Positions 3,593 through 16,271 of a DNA stretch of 64,000 nt are shown one piece after another. A program made the translations under genes and the position numbers. The notes under the pieces are model-generated. The model was not told the origin of the DNA and made no database searches. It saw only the letters and a program-made list of their open reading frames with translations. Where the stretch lies: the NCBI GenBank assembly GCA_002897895.1, contig BDSY01000058.1, positions 40,109 to 104,108 on the forward strand, in the 5' to 3' direction. Source of the stretch: a bacterium BMS3Abin06 (GTDB taxonomy: Bacteria; Nitrospirota; Thermodesulfovibrionia; UBA6902). Each line of letters begins with the position of its first letter. Within the stretch, counting starts at the first letter, position 1.

Positions 3593-5080
3593 TCAAAAGG
3601 GCAGCTTGACCGGCAGTGATCCTTTAAAATTCCTTTCACCTTTTAAACATTTGATAACAGATACTTGTGCCTGTTTACTTGTATCGTATGCTGCAATGAG
3701 CAAATCCGCCTTCGGGAAATGTCCGAGCACGTAAGGACTCCCAAAGGATATCACGATTGAATTGCGGGAATTTTTTATAAGTTTCCGGATGATATTTATT
3801 TCATCGTCCCTGATACCTGAACTCCCTCCCCATGCAGCGATACTGGTGAAGAGGGCAAAGACGACTGTTTTCCGGAGAGACTCTTTTTCAGAGTCTTTGA
3901 TCCTGATATGTCCGGATATGAAATTTTTCAGAGTGGATAAGTCATGCTTGTTTTCATCAGCGGCAAATGCAAGAGAAAGACCCTGAGTATTTTTGATCGG
4001 CAGCACTCCGGGGGAGTCTTTCACAAGTGTGACGGACTTATCGGAAATTCTTTCGGAAAGCCCGGCATGTTCCTGATAATTAATTCCGGATTTTCGGATA
4101 TTTTTTATCTTTGATTTATATTTCAGAATTCTTTCCACGGCAGTGTCTATCGTCCCCTCATCAATCTTCCCTGATGCAACGGCCTGTTTAAGTTCTTCAA
4201 CAACCGAATCAGCATCTGCCGGATGAAGGAGGATGTCGCCCCCTGCATTTATGCACATTGCCGGGACATTTTCATATTCATTCAGGGCATGCATGTTCAG
4301 CGCATCCGTAAGAACAAGACCTTCATATCCCAAATCCGTTCTTAACAGGCCGGTTATCACTTTTTTTGAAAGAGAGGCAGGAAGTTCATCAATTGCCGGG
4401 ATGCTGAGGTGTCCGGTCATAATACTGCCGGCACCTGCTTTTACGGCTTCCCTGAAGGGGAATATATCCGTATTCATCAGCTCGTCAAAAGATTTGGAAA
4501 TAACGGGGAGGGCTATGTGGGAATCAATGGCTGTGTCGCCGTGTCCGGGGAAATGTTTGGCACAGCTTATCAGCCCTGCATCTTCAATGGTCTTTATGTA
4601 TGTTTTGCCGTACCATGAAACATTTTCCTGATTGTCGGAAAATGCCCTTGTACAGATTATCGGATTGTCGGGATTCCTGTTCACATCCATGACCGGTATG
4701 AGCGGCATATTGATTCCGATATCAATCGCTTCATGAGAAACAGCATTAATTACATCTTCGAGAATTTCCACGTCTGAGGAATTATTTTTATTGATTGCTG
4801 CGGCTACAGCCATCTGGCAGGGGAAATGAGTAGCTCCGTCTATTTGCTGTCCCACGCCCCGCTCTATATCGGATGCAATAAACAGGGGTGTTTCTGATAC
4901 AGACTGAAGTTTATTAATGAAAGTTTTTACTTCATTCCTTTTACCGCCAAACAGGATGAACCCTCCGATACCTTTTCGAACAAGTTCAGAAGCCCGCTCC
5001 TGATACTGAATTGAAGAGAGTTTTTCTCCATCAAGTCTGCTTATGATAAGTTGCCAGAGTTTTTGCTCAAGGCCGGACAT
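3593..5080 (-). CDS. Glycoside hydrolase family 3 protein (NagZ-like beta-N-acetylhexosaminidase / beta-glucosidase-like)
   Basis: KHFPGHGDT motif and GH3 N-terminal fold signature; 495 aa. Its first 144 nt lie inside direct-repeat copy 1. Confidence 0.7.
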   Translation of the reverse strand: MSGLEQKLWQLIISRLDGEKLSSIQYQERASELVRKGIGGFILFGGKRNEVKTFINKLQSVSETPLFIASDIERGVGQQIDGATHFPCQMAVAAAINKNNSSDVEILEDVINAVSHEAIDIGINMPLIPVMDVNRNPDNPIICTRAFSDNQENVSWYGKTYIKTIEDAGLISCAKHFPGHGDTAIDSHIALPVISKSFDELMNTDIFPFREAVKAGAGSIMTGHLSIPAIDELPASLSKKVITGLLRTDLGYEGLVLTDALNMHALNEYENVPAMCINAGGDILLHPADADSVVEELKQAVASGKIDEGTIDTAVERILKYKSKIKNIRKSGINYQEHAGLSERISDKSVTLVKDSPGVLPIKNTQGLSLAFAADENKHDLSTLKNFISGHIRIKDSEKESLRKTVVFALFTSIAAWGGSSGIRDDEINIIRKLIKNSRNSIVISFGSPYVLGHFPKADLLIAAYDTSKQAQVSVIKCLKGERNFKGSLPVKLPF

Positions 5081-5205
5081 AGAACATTATAAACTACTTT
5101 ACTGCTAAAACTCCTTGAGCCGCAGGGCATCTTTTAATGCCGGCAACATCCTTTTTACGCAGGCCCGCCCTTCTTCAATGGCTTCTGACGCCCGATCGAA
5201 TTCGA
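4937..5205. repeat. 269-bp direct repeat, copy 1 (left boundary of island)
   Basis: Identical by eye to 16003..16271. Contains the 5' end of the GH3 gene plus the native patatin/GH3 intergenic junction. Confidence 0.9.
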
Positions 5206-5223
5206 AGCGCACAAAAAAACTCT

Positions 5224-5270
5224 TGACTTTTGGCTTCCAAAAAGTGTATAAGTATAGTATAATATACTTA
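5224..5270 (+). promoter_or_regulatory. Sigma70-like promoter (TTGACT-17-TATAAG) overlapping palindrome TAAGTATA-N6-TATACTTA upstream of the ArsR-family gene
   Basis: -35 at 5224..5229, -10 at 5247..5252, inverted repeat at 5249..5270. This layout is typical of an autoregulated repressor operator. Confidence 0.5.
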
Positions 5271-5280
5271 AGGAGTAAAA

Positions 5281-5676
5281 ATGAAAGTTGAGGCCGAGTC
5301 TTTTAAGGTTCTTTCGGTAGAAACCAGAATAAAGATTATTGAAATGCTAAAGGCAGGGCCACTCCCTGTGAATACAATAACAGAAGCATTAGGGATTAGC
5401 CAATCAGCAGTATCACAGCATCTTCGCGTGCTAAAGCAAGCCGGTTTAGTTACAGACGAAAGAAGAGGTTATCACATCTTCTATTCATTGAATAAAGATA
5501 AACTCGACAAGTACCAACAGGAACTACTAAAGGTCTGCACATGTGGCTGCAAACTTGCCAAGAGAAAACAGATTTCCGAGACAAGAGAGGCGCTGTTAGA
5601 ATATAAAAAAAGACTTGAAAAAGAAATAAAAGATGTGGGAAAAAGAATCAGGGACCTCGAAAAAGCGGCAGGGTAA
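5281..5676 (+). CDS. ArsR/SmtB-family transcriptional regulator with C-terminal CTCGC motif and coiled-coil tail
   Basis: Winged-HTH signature TITEALGISQSAVSQHLRVLKQAGLV, followed by KVCTCGCKL and a charged heptad-like tail. Confidence 0.75.
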   Translation: MKVEAESFKVLSVETRIKIIEMLKAGPLPVNTITEALGISQSAVSQHLRVLKQAGLVTDERRGYHIFYSLNKDKLDKYQQELLKVCTCGCKLAKRKQISETREALLEYKKRLEKEIKDVGKRIRDLEKAAG

Positions 5677-5698
5677 CCTTATATTTTTTCTTTTTAAT

Positions 5699-5722
5699 TT
5701 AAGTATATGCTAATACACTTAA
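5699..5722 (+). promoter_or_regulatory. Palindromic operator-like motif TTAAGT-N12-ACTTAA immediately upstream of the peptide-1 RBS
   Basis: TTAAGTATATGCTAATACACTTAA. The same architecture recurs at 12547..12570. Confidence 0.5.
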
Positions 5723-5734
5723 AGGAGGTGGCCT

Positions 5735-5929
5735 ATGTGCCAGGGGGGCATAGCTATAAGTCTAAAAAATAATAATTGTGGTTGTGAAGCGAAATTTGAG
5801 GAGAGAATTATAGGCAAGGAGGATCTGCTTACACGGTTAAATGAATATAAAAGAAATTTAGAATCGGAACTTGTAATAGTCAATAGCAAGTTAGAATCAG
5901 CGTCTTCCGCCGAGAAAGGAGGTGAGTAA
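5735..5929 (+). CDS. Small protein (64 aa) with NCGCE motif and a coiled-coil tail resembling the ArsR C-terminus
   Basis: Strong SD AAAGGAGGTG. MCQGGIAISLKNNNCGCEAKFEE...LNEYKRNLESEL. Its stop overlaps the SD of the next gene. Confidence 0.5.
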   Translation: MCQGGIAISLKNNNCGCEAKFEERIIGKEDLLTRLNEYKRNLESELVIVNSKLESASSAEKGGE

Positions 5930-5931
5930 GC

Positions 5932-6051
5932 ATGGCAGATACAAAAAAGGATACCAAGAAAAACGGAACATTAGGCAATGTTGTAAAAGAAATTAAGACA
6001 TCTAATTGCGGATGCGGTTGTGGTTGTATCCCTCCGCCATTCAAAAAATAA
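5932..6051 (+). CDS. Cys-Gly-repeat micro-protein (39 aa): MADTKKDTKKNGTLGNVVKEIKTSNCGCGCGCIPPPFKK
   Basis: Perfect SD AAAGGAGGTGA six nt upstream and a strong terminator downstream. A paralogue sits at 12643..12756. It is not in the ORF track because it is too short. Confidence 0.6.
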   Translation: MADTKKDTKKNGTLGNVVKEIKTSNCGCGCGCIPPPFKK

Positions 6052-6060
6052 CAGAGGACT

Positions 6061-6098
6061 TTGTGGGGAAGAGAATTCTCTTCCCCACAAAATTTTTT
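6061..6098 (+). terminator. Rho-independent terminator (15-bp perfect stem TTGTGGGGAAGAGAA/TTCTCTTCCCCACAA followed by a T-run)
   Basis: Read directly from the sequence. It lies between the peptide gene and the MoaD-like gene. Confidence 0.8.
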
Positions 6099-6112
6099 AT
6101 TGAGGAAATAAA

Positions 6113-6385
6113 ATGAAAATTAAACTTTATGCCAATCTGCGTGATATTGTCGGAAAAGATGAATTAGAAATGGAACTAAAAGAACCCGTTTCGCTCATTG
6201 AGTTTTTGAGAAATATTTCTAATGATTATGGAGAAAAAATGAGGAAATTCTTATTCAAAGAAACAAATGAAATTGCAGAATCTCTAATTATATCTATTAA
6301 TGGCGAAGTCATTAAGGAAAATAAATCTATTTTCTTATCAAATAAAGATGAGCTATCAATCTTATTACCTTTAGCGGGGGGATAA
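6113..6385 (+). CDS. MoaD/ThiS-like ubiquitin-fold sulfur-carrier protein (ends in Gly-Gly)
   Basis: 90 aa with a C-terminal ...LLPLAGG. The pattern is MoaD-like. Confidence 0.65.
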   Translation: MKIKLYANLRDIVGKDELEMELKEPVSLIEFLRNISNDYGEKMRKFLFKETNEIAESLIISINGEVIKENKSIFLSNKDELSILLPLAGG

Positions 6386-6661
6386 TTGCAACGGATTGAA
6401 CATGTTATAGCTGAGATTGACCAATGTACAGGCTGTAATATGTGCACGTTAGCCTGTTCCATGGCACAAAAAGGGGCATTTAATCCAAGATACTCTAAGA
6501 TAAAGGTTCATCAAGAATTGATAGGCCTTGTTACAAAGATAGAATTTATTGAACAATGCGATATGAGTCTTTTAAGCCAATGTAATTTGATAGATTCTGA
6601 GCCGCTTTGTACTAAATATTGCATTTTTGATGCAATTAAATTTAAAAAAGTGGAGGATTAA
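6386..6661 (+). CDS. Small Cys-rich 4Fe-4S ferredoxin-like protein
   Basis: CTGCNMCTLAC (CxxCxxCxxxC) plus four further Cys. TTG start directly after the MoaD-like stop. Confidence 0.4.
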   Translation: MQRIEHVIAEIDQCTGCNMCTLACSMAQKGAFNPRYSKIKVHQELIGLVTKIEFIEQCDMSLLSQCNLIDSEPLCTKYCIFDAIKFKKVED

Positions 6662-6662
6662 A

Positions 6663-8006
6663 ATGAGTAATATTTTATTAATACGGCCTCATCCGGTAGT
6701 AGATGATACTAAAAATTTTCCTACCGAATCGCCTCCAATTGGTATAATCTCTCTTGGAAGTTTCCTGCGATCTAAGGGTATGGATGTCAAAGCCATTGAT
6801 TTATGCACTGACCCACAAACAGATATTGTTTCTGAAATCTTAAAAATTAAACCTGATATTGTTGGTATATCATCAATGACTTGCGACTTCCCCTCTGCCT
6901 TGAAAATTGTTGATCAAATCAAGCGACATTTTGATATTCCGACAGTTTTAGGAGGAGCACATCCAACTATATTTCCCAAGGAAGTTCTACAGAATCCCTC
7001 TATAGATTACGTAATAATTGGTGAAGGAGAATATGCCTTTCATGAGCTTATAATCGCGCTTAAGAATGATAAAGCATTCAGTGAAATAGCCTCTTTAGGT
7101 TACAAAGAGAATGGGTCGATTTTTACAAACCCGCGAAGACCATTTATTGATATTAATACTCTGCCCTTCCCTGATTACAGTTTCCTTGATAATGAGAAAT
7201 ACATTGATTTTGGAGAAAGATATCTTGGTTTTAGACACTTAGTAGCTGTTATCAGCAGGGGATGCACTAACAGATGTTCCTTTTGCGCTCAGCATCAGGT
7301 CTGGGGCAACCAGTTTAGATTCTTTTCTCCTGAGAGGGTGGTCTCTGAATTGAAAAGGTTGATGCAGGAATATAATGTTGAAGGCTTTTGGTTTAAGGAT
7401 AGCGTCCTCACAGTTAAAAACTGGACAATTCCATTTTGTGAGGAGATAAGCAGGCAAAAATTGAATGTTAAATGGGCGTGTTTAGCAAGGGTGGATCAGG
7501 TAGATAAAGAACTTATTAAAAGTATGAAGAAAGCCGGTTTAGTAAAATTATGGATAGGTGCAGAATCTGCTTCCGATAGAATTCTTCAGTTACTCAATAA
7601 ATGGATTACAGTGGATCAGACACGAAAAGCTTTTCGTATATGTAAAGACGAGTGTGTTGATACTGCAGCCTTTTTTATGTTTGGCCTCCCAACAGAAACA
7701 GTAGATGAGATGGAGTTAACCTTTGAGTTGATCCGTGAAACGAACCCTAAGCCATTGCATTTGGCAATTTATCACCCATTGCCAGGAACAGAATTGTACG
7801 AAAAATACAATGGGGCAGATGTCATAAAACATGCAAATCCCAGAGAGTTAGTCTTTGACATGGCCTGTATGTCAACAGGACCTGTGAGTAAAGAACTTGT
7901 TCAGGAGATATACGATAGCATTTGTAACTACTTCATCAAGAATGGCTCAAAACCTGACTTTAAAGAATTTAAGAGAATAGCCTCATTTCAGGAAGCGAGG
8001 GTTTAA
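6663..8006 (+). CDS. B12-binding-domain radical SAM enzyme (class B rSAM)
   Basis: N-terminal Rossmann-like B12-binding domain, then CTNRCSFC (CxxxCxxC). No SPASM-type C-terminal Cys cluster is visible. The start is chosen at the ATG after SD GGAGGA rather than the track's 6627. Confidence 0.7.
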   Translation: MSNILLIRPHPVVDDTKNFPTESPPIGIISLGSFLRSKGMDVKAIDLCTDPQTDIVSEILKIKPDIVGISSMTCDFPSALKIVDQIKRHFDIPTVLGGAHPTIFPKEVLQNPSIDYVIIGEGEYAFHELIIALKNDKAFSEIASLGYKENGSIFTNPRRPFIDINTLPFPDYSFLDNEKYIDFGERYLGFRHLVAVISRGCTNRCSFCAQHQVWGNQFRFFSPERVVSELKRLMQEYNVEGFWFKDSVLTVKNWTIPFCEEISRQKLNVKWACLARVDQVDKELIKSMKKAGLVKLWIGAESASDRILQLLNKWITVDQTRKAFRICKDECVDTAAFFMFGLPTETVDEMELTFELIRETNPKPLHLAIYHPLPGTELYEKYNGADVIKHANPRELVFDMACMSTGPVSKELVQEIYDSICNYFIKNGSKPDFKEFKRIASFQEARV

Positions 8007-9875
8007 TTGCTATACGGATATGCAGGAAAGATTCTCAGGATTAACCTAACAACATCCAAAATTACCAAAGAAGATATTCCAGAAGATTTCTACCAAAAGT
8101 ACCTCGGTGGTAATGGTTTTGGTGCACGACTACTTTATACAGAGCTGAAACCTAAAATAGATCCACTGAGCAGTGAAAATATTCTCATATTTGCAACAGG
8201 TCCTCTGAACGGCGCCATGATTCCAATGGCATCAAAGCTTTGTGCAATCTCAAAATCTCCTTTAACAGGAACATTTATGGATGGATTCTGCAGCGGGAGG
8301 ATTGGTTCTGAACTGAAATATGCCGGTTATGACATCCTTGTGATAGAGGGTAAGGCTGATAAGCCTGTCTATCTATTTGTCGATGATGACATTATTCAAT
8401 TAAGAGACGGAATGTCCCTATGGGGAAAAGATACATTTACAACCCAAATAATGATAAAGAACGAGTTAAAAGACGAAAGCGTTCAAGTTGCCTGTATTGG
8501 CCCGGCAGGTGAAAATTTGGTAAGGTATGCCTGCATTATAACAGAACAAAGGGCTGTTGGAAGTGGCGGGTTGGGCGCTGTCATGGGGTCTAAGAATCTA
8601 AAGGCAATAGCAGTTCGTGGGAGTAAGTTAGTCTCTGTATTTAACACTGCTAAATTAGAGCAATTTGTTCAACGGATAATAGTAAAGATCAAAGAAGAGC
8701 CAGCAGCTCAAGTTCTTTCAAAATACGGCACTGCGGTAGTTACGTCGGTTTTGCAATATATTGGAGGACTTCCAACGAAAAACTGGCAGTCAGGTATATT
8801 CCCGGATAGTAAGGCGCTTTCGGCAGAAACACTTGTCGATAAATATACACAGAAAAACTTATCATGTTTTGCCTGTATGATCCCATGTGGACATTATTCT
8901 GTCGTTAAAGAAGGCCCATATAAAGGGGCGATTACTAATGGTCCGGAATTTCAAAGCATAGGCGTTTTTGGCCCATTGACTGGAAATAAAAGATTGGATG
9001 CAATTATCATGGCCGATAGACTTTGCGATGAATACGGCTTAGGACAGATATCGGCAGGGGTTTGTATATCTTTTGCCATGGAATGTTTTGAGCGAGGACT
9101 TATTACCAAGAAAGATACCGATGGGATAGAGTTGAGATTTGGCAATCATGAAGCAATGATAAAGATGCTTAGAAAGATAACTTACAGGGAAGGGATAGGG
9201 GATATTCTTGCCGAAGGGGTTAAAAGGGCATCAGCTATTTTAGGAAGAGGTACAGAAAGATATGCCATCCATGTAAAAGGGATGGAGATGGCATGCTTCT
9301 GTCCCCGGGTTTTAAAGACACAGGCCTTTGGTTTTGTTGTCTCCTCAAAAGGACCAAGCCACAATGAAGTGCGTATTACAGCAGAATTGGGAAGATTAAT
9401 TCCTAATGACTTAAAGAACGGCTTAGGCTATTTGGCTAAAGAACTGATGGATTGGAGTGCAATAGCCAATTCATTAATTTGGTGTCTTAGTGCTGAAAGG
9501 ATTTTGGATATAAAATTATCCGAAGAAGTAGTAGAGATGCTCAACTTTACGACGGGAATGGATTTTGATAAAACAGAATTAGTTAAGATCGCTGAAAGGA
9601 TTCACAATTTGGAGCGTGCATTCAATATCAGGGAGGGTTTTAGCAAGCAGGATGATGTGCTTCCAAAAAGATTTCTGAAAGAGGCAATTCCGGAAGGACC
9701 TGCAAAGGGTCTGAAAATAAACAAAAAAATACTCAATGCAACTATCGATGAATACTATGCTGCCAGGGGGTGGGATAAAGGAGGCAGACCTACTATGAAT
9801 AAACTTTTAGAACTCGGATTAGAGGATGTAATGGTATATATAAATGATGAGGAGAGAATGCCTGCAGGAAAATGA
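8007..9875 (+). CDS. aor: Aldehyde:ferredoxin oxidoreductase family (tungsto-/molybdo-pterin) enzyme
   Basis: AOR N-terminal signature MLYGYAGKILRINL...LGGNGFGARLLY; 622 aa. TTG start abuts the rSAM stop. Confidence 0.8.
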   Translation: MLYGYAGKILRINLTTSKITKEDIPEDFYQKYLGGNGFGARLLYTELKPKIDPLSSENILIFATGPLNGAMIPMASKLCAISKSPLTGTFMDGFCSGRIGSELKYAGYDILVIEGKADKPVYLFVDDDIIQLRDGMSLWGKDTFTTQIMIKNELKDESVQVACIGPAGENLVRYACIITEQRAVGSGGLGAVMGSKNLKAIAVRGSKLVSVFNTAKLEQFVQRIIVKIKEEPAAQVLSKYGTAVVTSVLQYIGGLPTKNWQSGIFPDSKALSAETLVDKYTQKNLSCFACMIPCGHYSVVKEGPYKGAITNGPEFQSIGVFGPLTGNKRLDAIIMADRLCDEYGLGQISAGVCISFAMECFERGLITKKDTDGIELRFGNHEAMIKMLRKITYREGIGDILAEGVKRASAILGRGTERYAIHVKGMEMACFCPRVLKTQAFGFVVSSKGPSHNEVRITAELGRLIPNDLKNGLGYLAKELMDWSAIANSLIWCLSAERILDIKLSEEVVEMLNFTTGMDFDKTELVKIAERIHNLERAFNIREGFSKQDDVLPKRFLKEAIPEGPAKGLKINKKILNATIDEYYAARGWDKGGRPTMNKLLELGLEDVMVYINDEERMPAGK

Positions 9876-9926
9876 AAAGAAATTATTGTACATAACAGCT
9901 TTATCAATTGAATGAGGTAAAAAATT

Positions 9927-10943
9927 ATGAATAACAGATTTTTCTCAACCCAAAAAGGCCACACAAAATTATGGATAACAATTGGAATAATTGTTCTTTT
10001 TCTGATTGCTATGGGCTTATTTATATTTTCAAACAAAAAACCTGCTGATGAAATAATTATAGGTTATAGTGCATTACGCATAAGCCTTCCTGTCTTTGCT
10101 GCAAAAGAAAAAGCTTATTTTGCCGGAGAAGGTTTGAATGTTAAATTAGTAAGGTTTGACACTGCTCAACCTTTAATGACTTCTCTTGTTGCCGGCAGCG
10201 TCCGGATAGCCGGTTATACGGCCTTGCCAATAACTTATAATGCCATGCTCAGAAGTAAAACAGATCTGTATTTTGTTACAGCAATGCTTGAAGACCAAAA
10301 ACATAGAATAAGTTATCTGATTGTTCCCAAAGATACTCCGGATACTTTTACGATTGCTGAGTTAAAAGGCAAAAAGATTGGTATTCTTCCAACAGTTGCA
10401 TACAGGGCATGGTTAGAAGAAATACTGAAATTTAACGAAGTAGATCCTTCAGATGTTAAAATTGTGCAAATTACTCCGGCTCTTACTCCTTCCGCATTAG
10501 AATCCGGTCAAGTTAATGCACTCTTTACTAATGATCCTGCTGCTACAACAATTCTACAACGAGGAATCGGTAGATTGCTTAGTAAAGAAGTTGAAGTTCC
10601 AAAAATATTTGGAGAGCAATTTGTTTTTGGCAGCTTTAATATTAGAAAAGACTTTGCAGACAGCAATCCTGAGATAGCAGCAAAAATAGTTAGGGCATTA
10701 GATAAGGCAGTAACATTTGTTAATAACAATCCGGATGAAGCAAAACGGATAATGAAGAAATATTTACATGAATTACAAAAACCTTTTGTGGATTTCTACC
10801 CGGATGCCCTTTATCAAACCACTACAGAAGTTGATCCTGAAAAATTCCAGGATATTGCAGATAAATATTTAGAAATTGGAATAATCCAGAAGCCATTAAA
10901 GGTTGAGCATTTGGTTATTTCCGAAAAAATTTTTTTAAAATGA
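9927..10943 (+). CDS. ABC transporter substrate-binding protein, NitT/TauT (SsuA/TauA/ThiY-like) family
   Basis: N-terminal signal/anchor followed by an NMT1-like fold pattern. Confidence 0.6.
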   Translation: MNNRFFSTQKGHTKLWITIGIIVLFLIAMGLFIFSNKKPADEIIIGYSALRISLPVFAAKEKAYFAGEGLNVKLVRFDTAQPLMTSLVAGSVRIAGYTALPITYNAMLRSKTDLYFVTAMLEDQKHRISYLIVPKDTPDTFTIAELKGKKIGILPTVAYRAWLEEILKFNEVDPSDVKIVQITPALTPSALESGQVNALFTNDPAATTILQRGIGRLLSKEVEVPKIFGEQFVFGSFNIRKDFADSNPEIAAKIVRALDKAVTFVNNNPDEAKRIMKKYLHELQKPFVDFYPDALYQTTTEVDPEKFQDIADKYLEIGIIQKPLKVEHLVISEKIFLK

Positions 10944-10947
10944 AAGC

Positions 10948-11667
10948 ATGATTGAAATAAAAAATCTTAAAAAGAAATTTTTTTGCAATGGCAGCAATAA
11001 ATCCTTGTTTTCCGGATTTGATTTAGTAATCAGAAAAAGCGAGAAGATTGGACTTTTCGCACCAAATGGAAGTGGAAAAAGCACTCTTTTAAATATTTTA
11101 GCAGGAGTTGATAAAGATTTTGCCGGCACGGTTTCTATAGAAGGGAAACGTATAAGCTATATGCACCAGGACACTAATGCAACCTTAGCTCCCTGGTTTA
11201 CTTGTGAAAAGAATATTTTGCTTGTAAGGAAATATCATCACTTAGGCATTGAAAAAGGGAAAGCTTTACTTAAACGGTTTGTTAATGAAATAGAAATCAA
11301 CTTTTCTTTAGACCAATATCCTTTTATGCTTAGTGGCGGCCAGAGACAAATAGTTGCACTTCTGCGGGCATTGATATTTGAACCGGATGTTTTATTATTG
11401 GATGAGCCTTTCTCTGCTCTTGACATTGAAAAACGAGCTGCTTTTATAGAGTTTTTAACAAAACACTTCACTAATAATCTTACAGTAATAATGTGCTCTC
11501 ATAGAGGGGATGAGGTTAAATCATTGCTTGACAGAGCTGTAATTCTAGAACATCAGTCAGAAACAAGGATTACGATGGATATTTGTCGTTCCAAGTTCCA
11601 CTCTAAACAAGAATTTGAACAGATTATCTCTAAAATCAGATTTAAGAAAAACGGACATGAAATATAA
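10948..11667 (+). CDS. ABC transporter ATP-binding protein (NitT/TauT family)
   Basis: Walker A GSGKST, signature LSGGQRQ, Walker B LLLDEP. Confidence 0.8.
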   Translation: MIEIKNLKKKFFCNGSNKSLFSGFDLVIRKSEKIGLFAPNGSGKSTLLNILAGVDKDFAGTVSIEGKRISYMHQDTNATLAPWFTCEKNILLVRKYHHLGIEKGKALLKRFVNEIEINFSLDQYPFMLSGGQRQIVALLRALIFEPDVLLLDEPFSALDIEKRAAFIEFLTKHFTNNLTVIMCSHRGDEVKSLLDRAVILEHQSETRITMDICRSKFHSKQEFEQIISKIRFKKNGHEI

Positions 11668-12403
11668 GACCTCACTTATAGGGATTTTTTCGGCGGTTAC
11701 TATCTGGCAAATCATTGCCTGGTTAAAAATATTCAATCCAATTTATTTTGCCTCGCCCTATGAAGTAATTGCTGAATCAATCAAAATGATTCAGGGAGGC
11801 GCTGTTTTCATAGACCTTACACTCACTATTTACAGAATAGCTGTCAGTGTTATTATATCCTCACTTATTGGCATACCTCTTGGCATTGCCTTTGGTTATT
11901 TTGCTCGTATCTATAAATATGTCGGCGAAATAGTGGATTTCCTGCGTTCAATCCCGCCAATTGTAATTTATCCATTGCTCCTTATTGTCTTGGGACCCGG
12001 AGATAGTTCAAGAATAGGCGTTGCTCTTTTTGGCTCAATAGTTGTTTTGGTTCTTATTATTTCTAACGGGTTATTTCAACAAGCGCCATTGAGAAGACAA
12101 TATTTTGCATCTCTTGGAGCCAATAAGGTTCAGCTCGTAAACCACATTGTCTGGTATGAAGCGCTGCCTCATGTTATGGTCGCTTTAAGAACAGCAGTAT
12201 CCCTATCCATTATTATTATAGTGGTTACAGAAATGCTTGTTGGCGCACAATATGGTTTGGGGACAAGGGTACAGAACGTTCAAATTACCAGCAACATTCC
12301 CGATTTATTTGTCACTATCATTATTATTGGTTTAATTGGTGTTTTATTTAATAAAACCTTAATCTGTCTTGATAAGAAGCTTGTTTTTTGGAAATCTAAT
12401 TGA
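11657..12403 (+). CDS. ABC transporter permease (binding-protein-dependent inner-membrane component)
   Basis: Hydrophobic throughout. The start is set at the ATG overlapping the ATPase stop. Confidence 0.7.
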   Translation: MKYKTSLIGIFSAVTIWQIIAWLKIFNPIYFASPYEVIAESIKMIQGGAVFIDLTLTIYRIAVSVIISSLIGIPLGIAFGYFARIYKYVGEIVDFLRSIPPIVIYPLLLIVLGPGDSSRIGVALFGSIVVLVLIISNGLFQQAPLRRQYFASLGANKVQLVNHIVWYEALPHVMVALRTAVSLSIIIIVVTEMLVGAQYGLGTRVQNVQITSNIPDLFVTIIIIGLIGVLFNKTLICLDKKLVFWKSN

Positions 12404-12546
12404 TAAATTTATTGTGGAGACTTTCTTATAAAAGTTTGTATGCTTCGCAGAATTTTGCAAAACTCAGAAAGAAAAATTTGCTCTAATTTACATGATATTG
12501 ATGAAAGAGATAAGAAGGGGTAAATAATTTTAATTTCGCTTTGTAT

Positions 12547-12570
12547 TTAAGTATATGCTTATTAACTTAA
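12547..12570 (+). promoter_or_regulatory. Second copy of the operator-like palindrome TTAAGT-N12-ACTTAA
   Basis: TTAAGTATATGCTTATTAACTTAA, about 70 nt upstream of the third peptide gene. Confidence 0.5.
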
Positions 12571-12642
12571 TTACATTAGGGTTATTTTGCTGAGGAGAAG
12601 ACATTTTTTGATGCATAATCCACAGAAAGGAGGTGATAAAAA

Positions 12643-12756
12643 ATGGCTGACAAAAGCAAAAAGAAGTCTTGTGGCTGTGGATGCGATATGCTGAAGCAAT
12701 CTAGCCGCAAAGCCGCAAAAGACGAGAAAGAGTCAAAAGTCATAAGTAAGAAGTAG
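12643..12756 (+). CDS. Cys-Gly-repeat micro-protein (37 aa): MADKSKKKSCGCGCDMLKQSSRKAAKDEKESKVISKK
   Basis: Same SD AAAGGAGGTGA and MAD-K-rich N-terminus plus CGCGC core as 5932..6051. Not in the ORF track. Confidence 0.55.
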   Translation: MADKSKKKSCGCGCDMLKQSSRKAAKDEKESKVISKK

Positions 12757-12854
12757 TCAGACTCGGCCTCACCAAAAGGGGGTAGGTTCAGAAATCGCTT
12801 GCCCCCTTAACTCCAATAATATTCTAATATTACGATTCAATAAAGGAGGAAATA

Positions 12855-13991
12855 ATGAAAAAATTAAATATTGAAGAAATTAGAGAACTATCCGAGAAGC
12901 TTGCATCTGAGAAATTGGCGCCACGTGCCGCAGAGATTGATCAGAACCGTACCTTTCCCTGGGAGAACATTCGAGCACTTGGAGAAGCTGGTTTCCTTGA
13001 GTTGATCATTTCTGAGGACAACGGTGGCTTAGGATTTGGGCGAGTCTGCTTTGCTTCGGTTGCAGAGGAGATAGCTAAGGCCTGCGCTTCCACCGCTCTT
13101 ATATATGTTTCTCACTCAATCGTGACAAAGGCGATAGAACTTGCAGGTAGCGAGGCTGCAAAGAAGAACTGGTTAACTAAAATGTTAACAGGACAATCGC
13201 TTGGAGCGTTCGCTGTCCACGAGCCTGACTCCGGCAGCAACTCCGGAGCCATCACCACATTGGCAAAGAAGGAAGGCGATCACTATATCGTAAATGGTTC
13301 AAAATTTTTCATTACTTCAGCCGGGGAGGCCGACTTCTACCTGGTCCTCGTCAGGACTGACCCGGAAAAGGGGCCTCAGGGTATGAGCACATTGCTCATT
13401 GAAAAAAACACTCCCGGTCTTTCCTTCGGTCAACACGAAGATAAGATGGGTCTGACAAGTACTTCCTCAAGGGAGATGTTTTTCAGCGATTGCCTTGTAC
13501 CGAAGGAAAATCTGATAGGCAATGAAGGTGAGGGAACACAGGTTATTGGGAAAACTGTAGTTGGTTTGGGGTTCTTCGGAGCTGCCGCGATATCTGTCGG
13601 AATCGCAAGATCAGCCACTGAACTTGCAATCAAACATGCCAAGGAAAGAGCCATAGCAGGACAACCCATTGCCGTTCATCAAGCCGTTCAGTTCATGATC
13701 ACGGACATGATTCTTGGGAATGAAGCCGCAGAAGCATTTCTCAAAGTATGTGCTGCAAGAGCTGACTCAACTCAAGGCGCTGCCGTTATTAATGGGTTTA
13801 AGGCTAAGCTTTTAGCCTCTGAGATGGCTGTGGATGTTACAAACAAGGCAATCCAGGTTATGGGTGGTCATGGATACTGCCGGGATTATATAGTTGAAAG
13901 GCTTTTTCGCGACGCCCGGGGATTGACGCTTCACTTCAAAACTTCCGAGTGGCTTCGACAGGATATTGCCAAGGCAGCATTGGGATTGTAA
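12855..13991 (+). CDS. Acyl-CoA dehydrogenase
   Basis: ACAD fold pattern; 378 aa; good SD. Confidence 0.8.
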   Translation: MKKLNIEEIRELSEKLASEKLAPRAAEIDQNRTFPWENIRALGEAGFLELIISEDNGGLGFGRVCFASVAEEIAKACASTALIYVSHSIVTKAIELAGSEAAKKNWLTKMLTGQSLGAFAVHEPDSGSNSGAITTLAKKEGDHYIVNGSKFFITSAGEADFYLVLVRTDPEKGPQGMSTLLIEKNTPGLSFGQHEDKMGLTSTSSREMFFSDCLVPKENLIGNEGEGTQVIGKTVVGLGFFGAAAISVGIARSATELAIKHAKERAIAGQPIAVHQAVQFMITDMILGNEAAEAFLKVCAARADSTQGAAVINGFKAKLLASEMAVDVTNKAIQVMGGHGYCRDYIVERLFRDARGLTLHFKTSEWLRQDIAKAALGL

Positions 13992-14016
13992 AAGCACAGG
14001 CAGGTCAACACACTAT

Positions 14017-14396
14017 CGAGCGGTGAAAGACAGAGGGCATGGCGCTTGCTCAAAAACCCCGGATACTTTTACTTGATGAGCCGATGACCTTTCTGGACAT
14101 TCATCACCAGTTCGAGATAATGGAGTTGTTGCAGAGACTCCAGAAGACTCCAGAAGGGTCTTGACATTACAGTAATCATGGTCATCCATGACCTGAACCA
14201 TGTGGCAAGGTTCAGCCACAGGGTAATTGCGCTGAAACATGGCCGTGTAATCAAGGATGGGTATCCACATGAAGTAATAACCGAGGATATCCTGAGAGAT
14301 GTTTTTGGAGTGAAGGCAAAGGTAATGGTAATGGCATTTAAGGATCATCATAATCGTGATTTCACTTTATGTTTCCCCTGTGGGGTCTGTAAGTAA
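14017..14396 (+). pseudogene. 5'-truncated, frameshifted remnant of a FecE/BtuD-type (iron-siderophore/cobalamin class) ABC ATPase
   Basis: ALAQKPRILLLDEP...LQRLQK then a frame change to ...LDITVIMVIHDLNHVARFSHRVIALKHGRVI. The frameshift coincides with a 10-bp tandem duplication AGACTCCAGA at 14135..14154. Walker A and signature regions are absent. Confidence 0.7.
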
Positions 14397-14411
14397 GCGG
14401 GAAGTGAAAAA

Positions 14412-15254
14412 ATGATCAGGACAGAAAATTTAACAAAGTATTACGGCAGTAAATGCGCTGTCAATTCGGTCTCCTTCAATATCAGGAAAGGAGAAGTCTT
14501 CGCGCTGCTCGGTCCTAACGGGGCCGGTAAGACAACAACCATTAAGATGCTGACCACCCTGAGCAGGCCTACAGAAGGAAAGATATTCATTAATAATCTT
14601 GATGTGGTAGTCGATCAGTTAAAGGTCAAGAGGCTGGTGGCCGTTGTGCCGCAGGTGGGAAACTTTGACAGGGAGCTTTCAGTATATGAAAACATGCTTG
14701 TTTACGGGATGCTTTATGGAGTAAAGGAGCCCGGACCGAAGATAGAAAAAAATCTTGATGCTTTAGGGCTGCTGAAAGAGAGAGATACCATTGCAGAGGT
14801 CCTTTCGGGCGGCATGCAGAGGAGGCTCCTTATTGCAAAAGCGCTCTTATCGGAGCCCGATGTCCTGTTCCTTGATGAACCAACAGTAGGACTTGATCCC
14901 CATGTGAGAAGGGAGATCTGGGACATTATCAGGAACATACGGAACAATGGGAAGACAATTCTGATGACCACCCACTATATCGAAGAGGCAGAGATGCTTT
15001 GTGATAGGATCGGTATCCTGTCTCATGGAAGCCTGATCGCAATAGATACTCCAGGGAACTTGAAGGACAACATAGGCAGATATGTTGTAGAAATTCCATC
15101 ATCCAATGGCAGCGGAAGGACTGAGCGTGTCATATGCAGAGACAGGGCTGAGGCGGAAGAGACCGCCCGAAGGTCTGACAACAGAGTTGTGATCAGGCCT
15201 GCAAATCTGGAAGACGTATTTATTCAACTGACAGGGGAGATGGTCGAGGGATGA
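14412..15254 (+). CDS. ABC-2 type exporter ATP-binding protein
   Basis: GPNGAGKTT, LSGGMQRRL and LFLDEPT motifs. Confidence 0.8.
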   Translation: MIRTENLTKYYGSKCAVNSVSFNIRKGEVFALLGPNGAGKTTTIKMLTTLSRPTEGKIFINNLDVVVDQLKVKRLVAVVPQVGNFDRELSVYENMLVYGMLYGVKEPGPKIEKNLDALGLLKERDTIAEVLSGGMQRRLLIAKALLSEPDVLFLDEPTVGLDPHVRREIWDIIRNIRNNGKTILMTTHYIEEAEMLCDRIGILSHGSLIAIDTPGNLKDNIGRYVVEIPSSNGSGRTERVICRDRAEAEETARRSDNRVVIRPANLEDVFIQLTGEMVEG

Positions 15255-15988
15255 ACTGGTACCCGGTATTTTACAGGGAGATGCTGCTCTTTAAGAAAAA
15301 GCTCTGTAAGCTTGGTTATGTCTTTTCATCTCTATTGTTCCCGGTGCTCTATCTGGTGGCATTTGGCATGGGGCTTGGCAGAAGGGTAAATATTGAGGGA
15401 ACGGGTTATATAGAGTTTCTTATTCCGGGCATAGCCGCCATGACCTCGATGACAAATTCATATAACCTTGTTTCAAACTCTTTAAGTATGGGCAGGCTTT
15501 TTTTTAAGAGCTTTCAGGTTGTTATCCAGTCACCTCTGCCGCATTTCTCGATCATGACAGGAATAGTGTTTTCGGGGATTGTGAAGGGAGCACTTGCATC
15601 TGCAGTTATTGTCCTCGCGGGCTTGATAATATTCAGGGCCTTTCCATTCAGTCTTGTCTCTTTTCTTGGGCTTTTATTAAACCTGATATTGTTCTCCTCT
15701 ATGGGTGTAGTCGCAGGGCTGCTTATAAGGTACCCTGAAGATAATGCTATTTATACCAACTTCTTTATAATGCCGATGGCATTCTTCTCGGGTACATTCT
15801 TTCCTGTAGACAATCTGCCGGCAGCGGTAAAAGGCATAATCATGTTTTTACCGCTGCACTACACCAACATTCTGATAAGAAGCGATGAACTGAGCAAGGA
15901 GGTGATTCTGCCGATATCAGTATTACTTGCAGTTTCGATAACACTATTTTTATGCGGAGCAAAACTGATTAAAAATTACAGTGAATAA
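15251..15988 (+). CDS. ABC-2 type exporter permease
   Basis: Six-TM-like hydrophobic protein; overlaps the ATPase stop by 4 nt. Confidence 0.7.
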   Translation: MNWYPVFYREMLLFKKKLCKLGYVFSSLLFPVLYLVAFGMGLGRRVNIEGTGYIEFLIPGIAAMTSMTNSYNLVSNSLSMGRLFFKSFQVVIQSPLPHFSIMTGIVFSGIVKGALASAVIVLAGLIIFRAFPFSLVSFLGLLLNLILFSSMGVVAGLLIRYPEDNAIYTNFFIMPMAFFSGTFFPVDNLPAAVKGIIMFLPLHYTNILIRSDELSKEVILPISVLLAVSITLFLCGAKLIKNYSE

Positions 15989-16002
15989 TTTCGGGCGTTA
16001 TC

Positions 16003-16271
16003 CCTTTTACCGCCAAACAGGATGAACCCTCCGATACCTTTTCGAACAAGTTCAGAAGCCCGCTCCTGATACTGAATTGAAGAGAGTTTTTCTCCATCAA
16101 GTCTGCTTATGATAAGTTGCCAGAGTTTTTGCTCAAGGCCGGACATAGAACATTATAAACTACTTTACTGCTAAAACTCCTTGAGCCGCAGGGCATCTTT
16201 TAATGCCGGCAACATCCTTTTTACGCAGGCCCGCCCTTCTTCAATGGCTTCTGACGCCCGATCGAATTCGA
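16003..16271. repeat. 269-bp direct repeat, copy 2 (right boundary of island)
   Basis: Identical to 4937..5205. It carries an orphan 5' fragment of the GH3 gene on the minus strand (16003..16146) and supplies the last ~33 codons of the patatin gene. Confidence 0.9.

Follow-up and report, generated by a model that had tools for sequence, protein, structure and literature searches.

Micro-proteins with Cys-Gly cores associated with a subtype of ArsR repressor: a candidate metal(loid)-binding family of largely uncultured anaerobic bacteria

The closest described systems to the locus treated here are the SmtB-SmtA and BxmR-BmtA pairs of cyanobacteria, in which the gene of an ArsR/SmtB-family repressor adjoins that of a Cys-rich small protein, a metallothionein, and palindromic operator-like sites are present. 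Two further types of protein are pertinent. AfArsR of Acidithiobacillus ferrooxidans senses As(III) and carries a Cys triad near its C-terminus. Repressors of the CopY type have tails with the motif CxCxxxxCxC, and Cox17-type proteins are small CCxC chaperones that form Cu4S6 clusters. This paper concerns an arsR gene and three genes for micro-proteins with Cys-Gly motifs, termed pep1, pep2 and pep3, in a 64,000 bp stretch of genomic DNA (contig BDSY01000058.1 of bacterium BMS3Abin06, Nitrospirota), which is referred to as the window. The micro-proteins very probably constitute a real family under ArsR control. The family is found in Nitrospirota, Desulfobacterota, Nitrospinota, Omnitrophota, Methylomirabilota and other largely uncultured anaerobes.

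The pep1 gene is situated at positions 5735..5929 of the forward strand and encodes 64 amino acids. The peptide has an N-terminal Met-Cys (MCQGG...) and a single CGC (NNCGC...), followed by a coiled-coil helix with a heptad-like stretch. The pep2 gene (5932..6051, forward strand) encodes a 39 amino acid product, MADTKKDTKKNGTLGNVVKEIKTSNCGCGCGCIPPPFKK, which consists of a hydrophilic N-terminal tail and then CGCGCGC-IPPPFKK. The pep3 gene is at 12643..12756, also on the forward strand; its 37 amino acid product begins MADKSKKKSCGCGCDMLKQ and has an N-terminal CGCGC core followed by a Lys-rich C-terminal tail. All three had been translated in an earlier note made from the letters of the window, and these translations were reproduced exactly. 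A near-perfect and correctly spaced Shine-Dalgarno (SD) sequence, AAAGGAGGTG, is found before each gene. That of pep1 is AAAGGAGGTGG, at 5726-5732, and pep2 and pep3 do have an identical SD, AAAGGAGGTGA, as had been claimed. The reported overlap between the end of pep1 and the SD of pep2 is also present: in the sequence AAA GGA GGT GAG TAA gc ATG, the final codons and stop codon of pep1 form the SD of pep2, and therefore the two genes are predicted to be translationally coupled. The genes had been described as undetected. This is correct for pep2, which is on no public record, but pep1 (BMS3Abin06_01490) and pep3 (BMS3Abin06_01499) are publicly annotated as hypothetical.

On both strands of the window, pep1, pep2 and pep3 are the only SD-preceded small open reading frames (ORFs) that contain CGC. 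The motif CGCGC occurs twice in stop-free segments, compared with a mean of 0.01 and a maximum of 1 in 200 dinucleotide shuffles of the window. The count of CGCGC and the uniqueness of the three ORFs thus exclude chance.

The arsR gene (5281..5676, forward strand) encodes a 131 amino acid repressor with a winged-helix-turn-helix core, a C86-T-C88-G-C90 triad, a flexible linker and a 32-residue C-terminal helix. It belongs to the ArsR family, with 57.5 bits against PF01022 (cut-off 22) and 92.8 bits against NF033788 (cut-off 55). TsoR, an ArsR equivalog of NCBIfam, was considered as its identity and rejected (51.6 bits versus a cut-off of 115); no paper on TsoR was found. C86, C88 and C90 are the only cysteines in the protein. 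The canonical sensory sites, CxC in helix 3 (ArsR/CadC type) or His/Asp/Glu in helix 5 (SmtB/CzrA type), are lacking: the helix-3 region (residues 30-53) contains no Cys, and helix 5 (residues 72-85) contains no His. Among 22 aligned homologues, C86, C88 and G89 of the sequence VCTCGC are near-invariant, and a heptad-patterned stretch, ...LLEYKKRLEKELKxVEKRI..., follows. In an AlphaFold2 model of the protein (mean pLDDT 82.7), the winged-helix core extends to residue 85 and the triad is placed where helix 5 ends; the linker at residues 92-100 is modelled with low confidence, and a 32-residue helix at residues 99-130 is modelled confidently. Solved structures of ArsR-family proteins, of which NmtR, SmtB and CzrA are nearest, match the repressor over residues 5-84 only. 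The subfamily is large, with 1892 matches at E <= 1e-5, and the best 120 of these are 56-100% identical. Two homologues, P0111 and P0115, have an additional linker segment, RCCLPP, after CTCGC. The segment resembles the GC(I/V)PP core of the peptides described below, as though a peptide-like unit had been integrated into the sensor tail.

Comparison with described repressors reveals a mixture of properties. Unlike SmtB, the window repressor is without helix-3 and helix-5 metal sites and has the C-terminal Cys triad instead. The genes also differ from the smtB-smtA pair in being co-directional and in that one for a CopD-family membrane protein is often among them. It resembles AfArsR in that three Cys residues are clustered at or after the end of helix 5 in one chain and not at the helix-3 CVC site. 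However, the spacing is CxCGC, many members add a coiled-coil helix, and there are no ars genes nearby. Similarities to CopY and Cox17 consist of clustered CxC thiolates, borne by a winged-helix repressor on a flexible tail and also by soluble proteins of very small size, of Cys residues in threes, of which a dimer would offer six thiolates, and of a membrane partner that is CopD/CtaG-like. Yet no sequence homology to CopY or Cox17 was detected, and the repressor fold is that of ArsR and not of BlaI/CopY.

A 24 bp palindrome, TAAGTA-N10-TACTTA, is present at three sites and nowhere else in the window, where 0 to 0.28 sites are expected. O1 (5248..5271), with the sequence ATAAGTATA-GTATAA-TATACTTAA and perfect 8 bp arms, is found just 5′ of arsR. 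O2 (5699..5722), TTAAGTATATGCTAATACACTTAA, ends 3 nt 5′ of the SD of pep1. O3 (12547..12570), TTAAGTATATGCTTATTAACTTAA, is 73 nt 5′ of pep3 and is identical to O2 at 22 of 25 positions, with 0 chance matches expected. A sigma-70-like promoter for arsR can be read at 5223..5252 of the forward strand (TTGACT at 5223-5228, an 18 nt spacer and TATAAG at 5247-5252), and its -10 element overlaps O1. TTGACA or TTGACT and TATAAGT, together with the palindrome, are found at the equivalent place in six other loci (L008, L009, L010, L012, L015 and L016). An O2-like palindrome between arsR and the first peptide gene was found by search in L008, L011 and L047, and is also visible in L009, L010, L012, L015 and L016. 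The two sites flank arsR at a kept spacing, being at 5249 and 5700 in the window and at 6706 and 7158 in L008. As palindromes precede arsR, pep1-pep2 and pep3, the repressor gene and the three peptide genes share one predicted operator, to which ArsR would bind at each of the three places. With respect to O1, O2 and O3, the adjacent repressor and operator-like sites of SmtB-SmtA thus have likely counterparts here, and the sense-then-sequester logic of that system may apply.

For a survey of the peptides, 80 genomic loci of the ArsR subfamily were fetched and scanned for small downstream ORFs. The family ORF encodes 22-57 amino acids and is found directly 3′ of arsR, typically ~65 nt past the arsR stop codon, and in most loci the SD AAGGAGGT is 7-8 nt 5′ of the start codon. 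The conserved core is C-G/D-C-G-C-(I/V)-P-P-(V/I/M)-K. Where ArsR has the CxCGC motif, an ORF with this core was found at 51 of 62 loci; where the motif is lacking, the count is only one of 12 (Fisher p = 1.7e-6). In the background, ORFs of this kind occur at 0.018 per kb. This co-occurrence of the peptide and the ArsR subfamily, together with the shared operator-like palindromes, makes the smtB-smtA arrangement, proposed in the earlier note, the best analogy. The note had also made its case depend on conservation of the CGC cores, and these are indeed kept in both orthologous and distant loci. In 65 cores, TGC and TGT share each Cys position about equally, and Gly is encoded by every one of its four codons. 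The free wobble variation argues that selection is on the amino acid sequence and not on a DNA or RNA motif.

The family is poorly visible in databases. A phmmer search with pep2 against 1.84 billion representative sequences gave 14 significant matches. All have 34-39 amino acids, save one 96 amino acid pep1-pep2 fusion, share the pep2 layout, and are termed hypothetical wherever source records name them. Word-indexed searches, which take queries of at least 40 amino acids, gave pep1 itself only, and nothing for a 41 amino acid extended form of pep2. These word-based protein searches failed because such ORFs are seldom called as genes. Scans of the three peptides with Pfam and NCBIfam, metallothionein models included, gave no match at E <= 1, the Protein Data Bank has no match to the peptides, and no description of the family was found in the literature searched. 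As judged by the pattern of their sequences, pep1, pep2 and pep3 are real products that are selected at the protein level and tied to the CxCGC subtype of ArsR.

Three architectures can be distinguished. A tail followed by the core, as in pep2, is found in Nitrospirota, Nitrospinota, Omnitrophota and many ‘Deltaproteobacteria’. The core followed by a Lys-rich tail, as in pep3, is typical of Desulfobacterota loci (Desulfobacterales), e.g. MAEKKNVCGCGCIPLKQ...KKSK, with similar peptides in L051, L060 and L068-L071. Two or three tandem cores are found in Desulfobulbaceae/Desulfurivibrio loci (L048, L050, L053, L061, L062 and L064). The proposal that pep3 is a paralogue of pep2 agrees with this, as both are members of one core family with two architectures. 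Of 50 members, 28 have three Cys residues, 16 have four, four have six and two have nine. The peptides do not belong to the metallothionein family models, and these numbers of Cys, six or nine being confined to the multi-core forms, set them apart from SmtA and BmtA. SmtA is a folded Cys9His2 zinc-cluster domain; here there is one CxCxC unit and a disordered tail. Both pep2 and pep3 are hydrophilic and probably disordered, with the Cys3 core as their only conserved element. The net charge of the 50 members varies from -5 to +12 and eight are neutral or acidic, which weakens the suggestion that Lys-rich tails signify a role at nucleic acids or membranes.

The pep1 peptide has a different relationship to the repressor. 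Its orthologues start with MCQ... and are found between arsR and pep2 in L008-L016; they have CxC ~13 residues in, and then SKE(D/E)LLxRLxEYKKxLESEL. Distant relatives of 60-75 amino acids follow arsR in L014, L052, L063, L073, L081 and L085. A comparison by hhalign of the pep1-family profile with ArsR C-terminal tails gives a probability of 98% and E = 2.4e-13 over 45 columns, with the CxC motifs and the EYK heptads in register. Thus, pep1 is a detached copy of the Cys-plus-coiled-coil tail of the sensor. The relationship is visible by profile-profile comparison only, and BLASTP of pep1 against ArsR gives no alignment. In L012 and in protein P0135 the pep1 and pep2 sequences form a single reading frame, the gene of the latter being directly 3′ of arsR, and these fusions argue that pep1 and pep2 act together. 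Another small protein, DUF5320 (PF17253), has a Gly/Cys-rich N-terminus and a C-terminal coiled coil, and pep1-type relatives from L063, L081 and L014 align to its C-terminal two thirds. However, their scores of 21.0, 16.2 and 15.9 bits are all below the gathering threshold of 27 bits, the scan gave no match for the window pep1 or for the L085 relative, and the relationship of pep1 to the ArsR tail is the clearer one.

Neighbouring genes were analysed by all-against-all clustering (77 loci) and by a Pfam census of 150 close neighbours, all of them no more than 1.8 kb away. Clustering reveals one widely conserved partner, a protein of ~160 amino acids with four transmembrane segments that is encoded immediately after the peptide. 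It is a member of the Pfam CopD family (PF05425), with two representatives at 42.1 and 37.3 bits (cut-off 32.1). It also matches DUF4149, and precomputed Pfam CopD matches in L088-L090 agree. With the CopD equivalog NF033808 it attains 41 bits versus the required 195, and covers only the C-terminal half of the model; therefore, the partner is a half-size relative of CopD with four transmembrane segments and not CopD itself. H13, M46, M102 and H106 are invariant. Of the 62 loci with the CxCGC motif, 26 have a CopD-family gene after that of the peptide, versus none of 12 others (p = 0.006), and the order ArsR, 39 amino acid peptide, CopD/DUF4149 is found in independent public gene calls. Hairpins can be read between the peptide and CopD genes of relatives, and are similar to one that follows pep2. 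The latter is an intrinsic terminator (6060..6098, forward strand), with a perfect stem, an AATT loop and a T-run. It had been given a 15 bp stem; the terminator is real and its perfect stem is 14 bp. Segment 5990-6112 folds at -37 kcal/mol (z-score -4.3 versus shuffled sequence), and no competing antiterminator fold is found in it. An attenuator model of the terminator was rejected, as there is no alternative fold. An Rfam scan gave two chance-level matches only, both on the terminator.

We consider, with moderate confidence, that the module is a buffer or chaperone for a soft metal or metalloid under the control of the ArsR sensor. A soft, thiol-seeking ligand would bind to the Cys triad of ArsR and the repressor would leave the DNA; to our knowledge, ligand-induced DNA release is general to all characterized ArsR/SmtB sensors. 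The derepressed peptides would then be produced in excess over the downstream membrane protein, because a hairpin precedes the gene of the latter. The peptides would chelate the ligand of ArsR via matching Cys3 sites, and either buffer it or pass it to the CopD-like membrane protein. Removal of the ligand would restore repression, by the logic of SmtB-SmtA. By this analogy the module would work like an ArsR-metallothionein pair, yet it falls outside the metallothionein, DUF5320 and Cys-leader families and that of the ribosomally synthesized and post-translationally modified peptides (RiPPs).

Foremost among the candidate ligands are Cu(I) and As(III). Cu(I) is favoured by the link to CopD and by the invariant His and Met residues of the partner, and two Cys3 units could form a Cu4S6 cluster, as in sites of the CopY or Cox17 type. 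As(III) is favoured by the three-Cys sensor position at the end of helix 5, which resembles that of AfArsR. Hg(II) or Cd(II) is possible, Hg(II) being hinted at only by the adjacency of hgcAB at two loci. A more specific proposal is that the CxCGC ArsR is a sensor coupled to peptides in which its ligand site is reproduced, and that the whole is an undescribed multi-phylum system and a new class of metallochaperone or metallothionein with a half-size CopD-like protein. This is tentative and rather doubtful. If true, the affinity of the buffer would match the set-point of the sensor, and pep1 could plug into the repressor tail and tune its oligomeric state.

Several points weigh against a metal(loid) buffer. 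CopD proteins are copper importers, which is a poor fit with derepression by excess copper, and a CopD-like gene is absent from the 64 kb window. Three to four Cys residues are few for a metallothionein. No P-type ATPase, ArsB/Acr3, CDF or Mer protein is present in the census of 150 close neighbours. Some contexts are instead of a sulfur or electrophile type (DsrE, SQR-like Pyr_redox_2, acyl-CoA-dehydrogenase-family (ACAD) and aldehyde:ferredoxin oxidoreductase (AOR) proteins and, by eye, a TauE/SafE-like protein). Neither Cu(I) nor As(III), nor any other ligand, can be deduced from the sequence, and the binding of ArsR to the palindromes is a prediction only.

These contexts raise the question of whether the peptides act as a thiol buffer or carrier with no metal involved. 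The ArsR triad would sense persulfide, polysulfide or electrophiles such as aldehydes or acryloyl compounds, and the Cys3 peptides would be sacrificial or carrier thiols in hosts that may lack glutathione. This is the strongest of the rival explanations, although an unlikely one. It is consistent with the clustering of all sensor cysteines and with the cargo of the window island, where the AOR, a sulfonate-type ABC transporter and an acryloyl-CoA-reductase-like ACAD are encoded. ACAD orthologues also follow the peptide in L014 and L017, and at some loci there are DsrE proteins, SQR-like Pyr_redox_2 flavoproteins and a membrane protein that by eye is TauE/SafE-like. In addition, BigR, a persulfide-sensing member of the ArsR family, is a weak, sub-threshold match to the window ArsR. 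However, no neighbour of this type is conserved, each being present in at most seven of 77 loci, and the only widely kept partner is the CopD-family protein with its invariant His and Met. Furthermore, known persulfide sensors of the ArsR type have two distant cysteines and no CxCxC triad.

The homology of pep1 to the ArsR tail would also fit a mainly regulatory role for the peptides. Here, pep1 would hetero-oligomerize with the tail of ArsR, for example in a tetramer that bridges O1 and O2, ~450 bp apart, and pep2 and pep3 would be co-ligand donors to, or acceptors from, the sensor site. The two operators that flank arsR at conserved spacing, the pep1-pep2 fusions and the long free C-terminal helix of the AlphaFold2 model are in keeping with this. 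But most loci (Desulfobacterota, Nitrospinota and others) encode a short ArsR and keep a pep2-type peptide in the absence of both pep1 and the tail helix, and therefore the core function cannot depend on mimicry of the tail. The spacing of O1 and O2, moreover, is simply the length of the arsR gene. We regard this role as improbable.

The earlier note had suggested a third role, that of RiPP precursors whose Cys-Gly cores are modified by the B12-radical S-adenosylmethionine (SAM) enzyme encoded at 6663..8006, or by other maturases. The cores are Cys-rich and repetitive, with two or three in tandem in some members, and the enzyme gene is 600 bp downstream in the window, though its product is below the cut-off against RiPP radical-SAM models such as ApyD. 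The survey told against the association, as a B12-radical-SAM gene is near the module in only four of 77 loci and radical-SAM proteins number four of 150 close neighbours. There is no conserved protease, RRE/PqqD or exporter among the neighbours, and nothing like a leader is kept: it is the core, CGCGC(I/V)PPxK, that is conserved, and the tails differ between members in sequence, length and charge and in the side of the core on which they lie. Between pep2 and the radical-SAM operon there is a strong terminator, and the enzyme gene shares its operon with those of MoaD, ferredoxin and AOR, a setting that suggests cofactor or substrate chemistry. Modification of this kind is very unlikely. Least credible of all is a role as cis-acting leader peptides with functionless products, in which ribosome stalling at Cys codons or Pro-Pro controls the downstream gene: the ORFs are short, a terminator and then an operon come after pep2, a hairpin precedes CopD in relatives, and there is a very weak match (E = 0.13) to a mycobacterial Cys-rich leader family, but the best match to that family (NF042936, Ms4527A) is 11.9 bits versus a cut-off of 45, there is no antiterminator fold, Gly, Ile/Val, Pro-Pro and Lys are conserved besides Cys, the downstream genes vary widely (CopD, ACAD and others) and are not those of cysteine biosynthesis, and the existence of pep1-pep2 fusions and of multi-core variants indicates that the product has a function.

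Annotation routinely overlooks proteins as small as these (22-57 residues), as is seen in the lack of a record for pep2 and in the name ‘hypothetical’ given to its relatives. What is newly defined here is a micro-protein family with a sequence signature, a dedicated subtype of regulator, a predicted operator and a frequent membrane partner. The mimic of the sensor tail, pep1, is an unusual design. Carriers of the module have been found in groundwater, sediments and hydrothermal sulfide deposits. Were the peptides found to bind Cu(I), As(III) or Hg(II), they would rank as the smallest regulated metal buffers known, and would also fill a gap in the metal(loid) handling of organisms behind the cycling of sulfur, arsenic and mercury.

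Apart from the CopD-like protein, the neighbours of the module are variable. The Pfam census gave only methyltransferases (seven), Pyr_redox_2 (six), TldD/PmbA (five) and radical SAM (the four already mentioned), all scattered, and no metal-resistance, sulfur or RiPP family is enriched. Given its variable neighbours, the module behaves as an autonomous unit across many contexts. A rarer partner is the ACAD gene. In the window it is at 12855..13991 of the forward strand, directly 3′ of pep3, and has Pfam Acyl-CoA_dh domains; among NCBIfam models, those of acryloyl-CoA reductase and 3-sulfinopropanoyl-CoA desulfinase match it best. In L017 and L014 an orthologue (66% and 51% identity, respectively) comes straight after the arsR-peptide pair, and the window gene is probably in the same regulon as pep3. 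Between pep3 and the ACAD gene, at 12757-12812, there is a GC-rich hairpin, AAGGGGG...CCCCCTT, with no T-run. It was not flagged by a terminator scan and might modulate read-through into the ACAD gene.

Two loci have the module near genes for mercury methylation proteins, hgcA and hgcB. In L015, a Thermodesulfovibrionales metagenome-assembled genome (MAG), hgcA (with the cap-helix motif NVWCAAGK) and hgcB (with a C-terminal CC) are at 8594-9903, immediately 5′ of arsR-pep1-pep2-CopD. In L068, a deltaproteobacterial MAG, hgcAB are at 9166-10170, near the module. ArsR2, described as the regulator of hgcAB in P. mercurii, differs in its Cys layout, which is one of four residues (bioRxiv 10.1101/2022.10.17.512643). 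A mercury link by way of hgcAB was rejected on this ground and on the low number of such loci, two of ~80.

In the window, an operon at 6113-12403 encodes a MoaD/ThiS-like protein that ends in GG, a ferredoxin-like protein, the B12-radical-SAM enzyme, a tungsten-type AOR and an ABC transporter. The three subunits of the transporter have weak NCBIfam matches to SaoX, SaoA and SaoP, well below the cut-offs. In the mechanical ORF list the radical-SAM gene begins with TTG 6627, which makes it overlap the ferredoxin-like gene upstream; the start in public gene calls is ATG 6663 (447 amino acids). A perfect 272 nt direct repeat, at 4934-5205 and 16000-16271, brackets a 10.8 kb island (5206-15999). 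Within the island are arsR, pep1, pep2, the MoaD-ferredoxin-B12-radical-SAM-AOR operon, the sulfonate-type ABC transporter, pep3, the ACAD gene and an ABC-2 transporter. The repeat is made up of the 5′ end of a GH3 gene and the 3′ end of a patatin-like gene, and the island therefore resembles an insertion accompanied by duplication. Five other loci (L002, L003, L004, L005 and L007) carry the same module at 98-99.8% identity, and the similarity to the window begins exactly at 5213. A chimera of assembly is conceivable, but these features suggest a cassette that is mobile or recombines. Upstream of 5213 L004, at least, is different, with nitrogenase-like, NifB-like and P-II genes.

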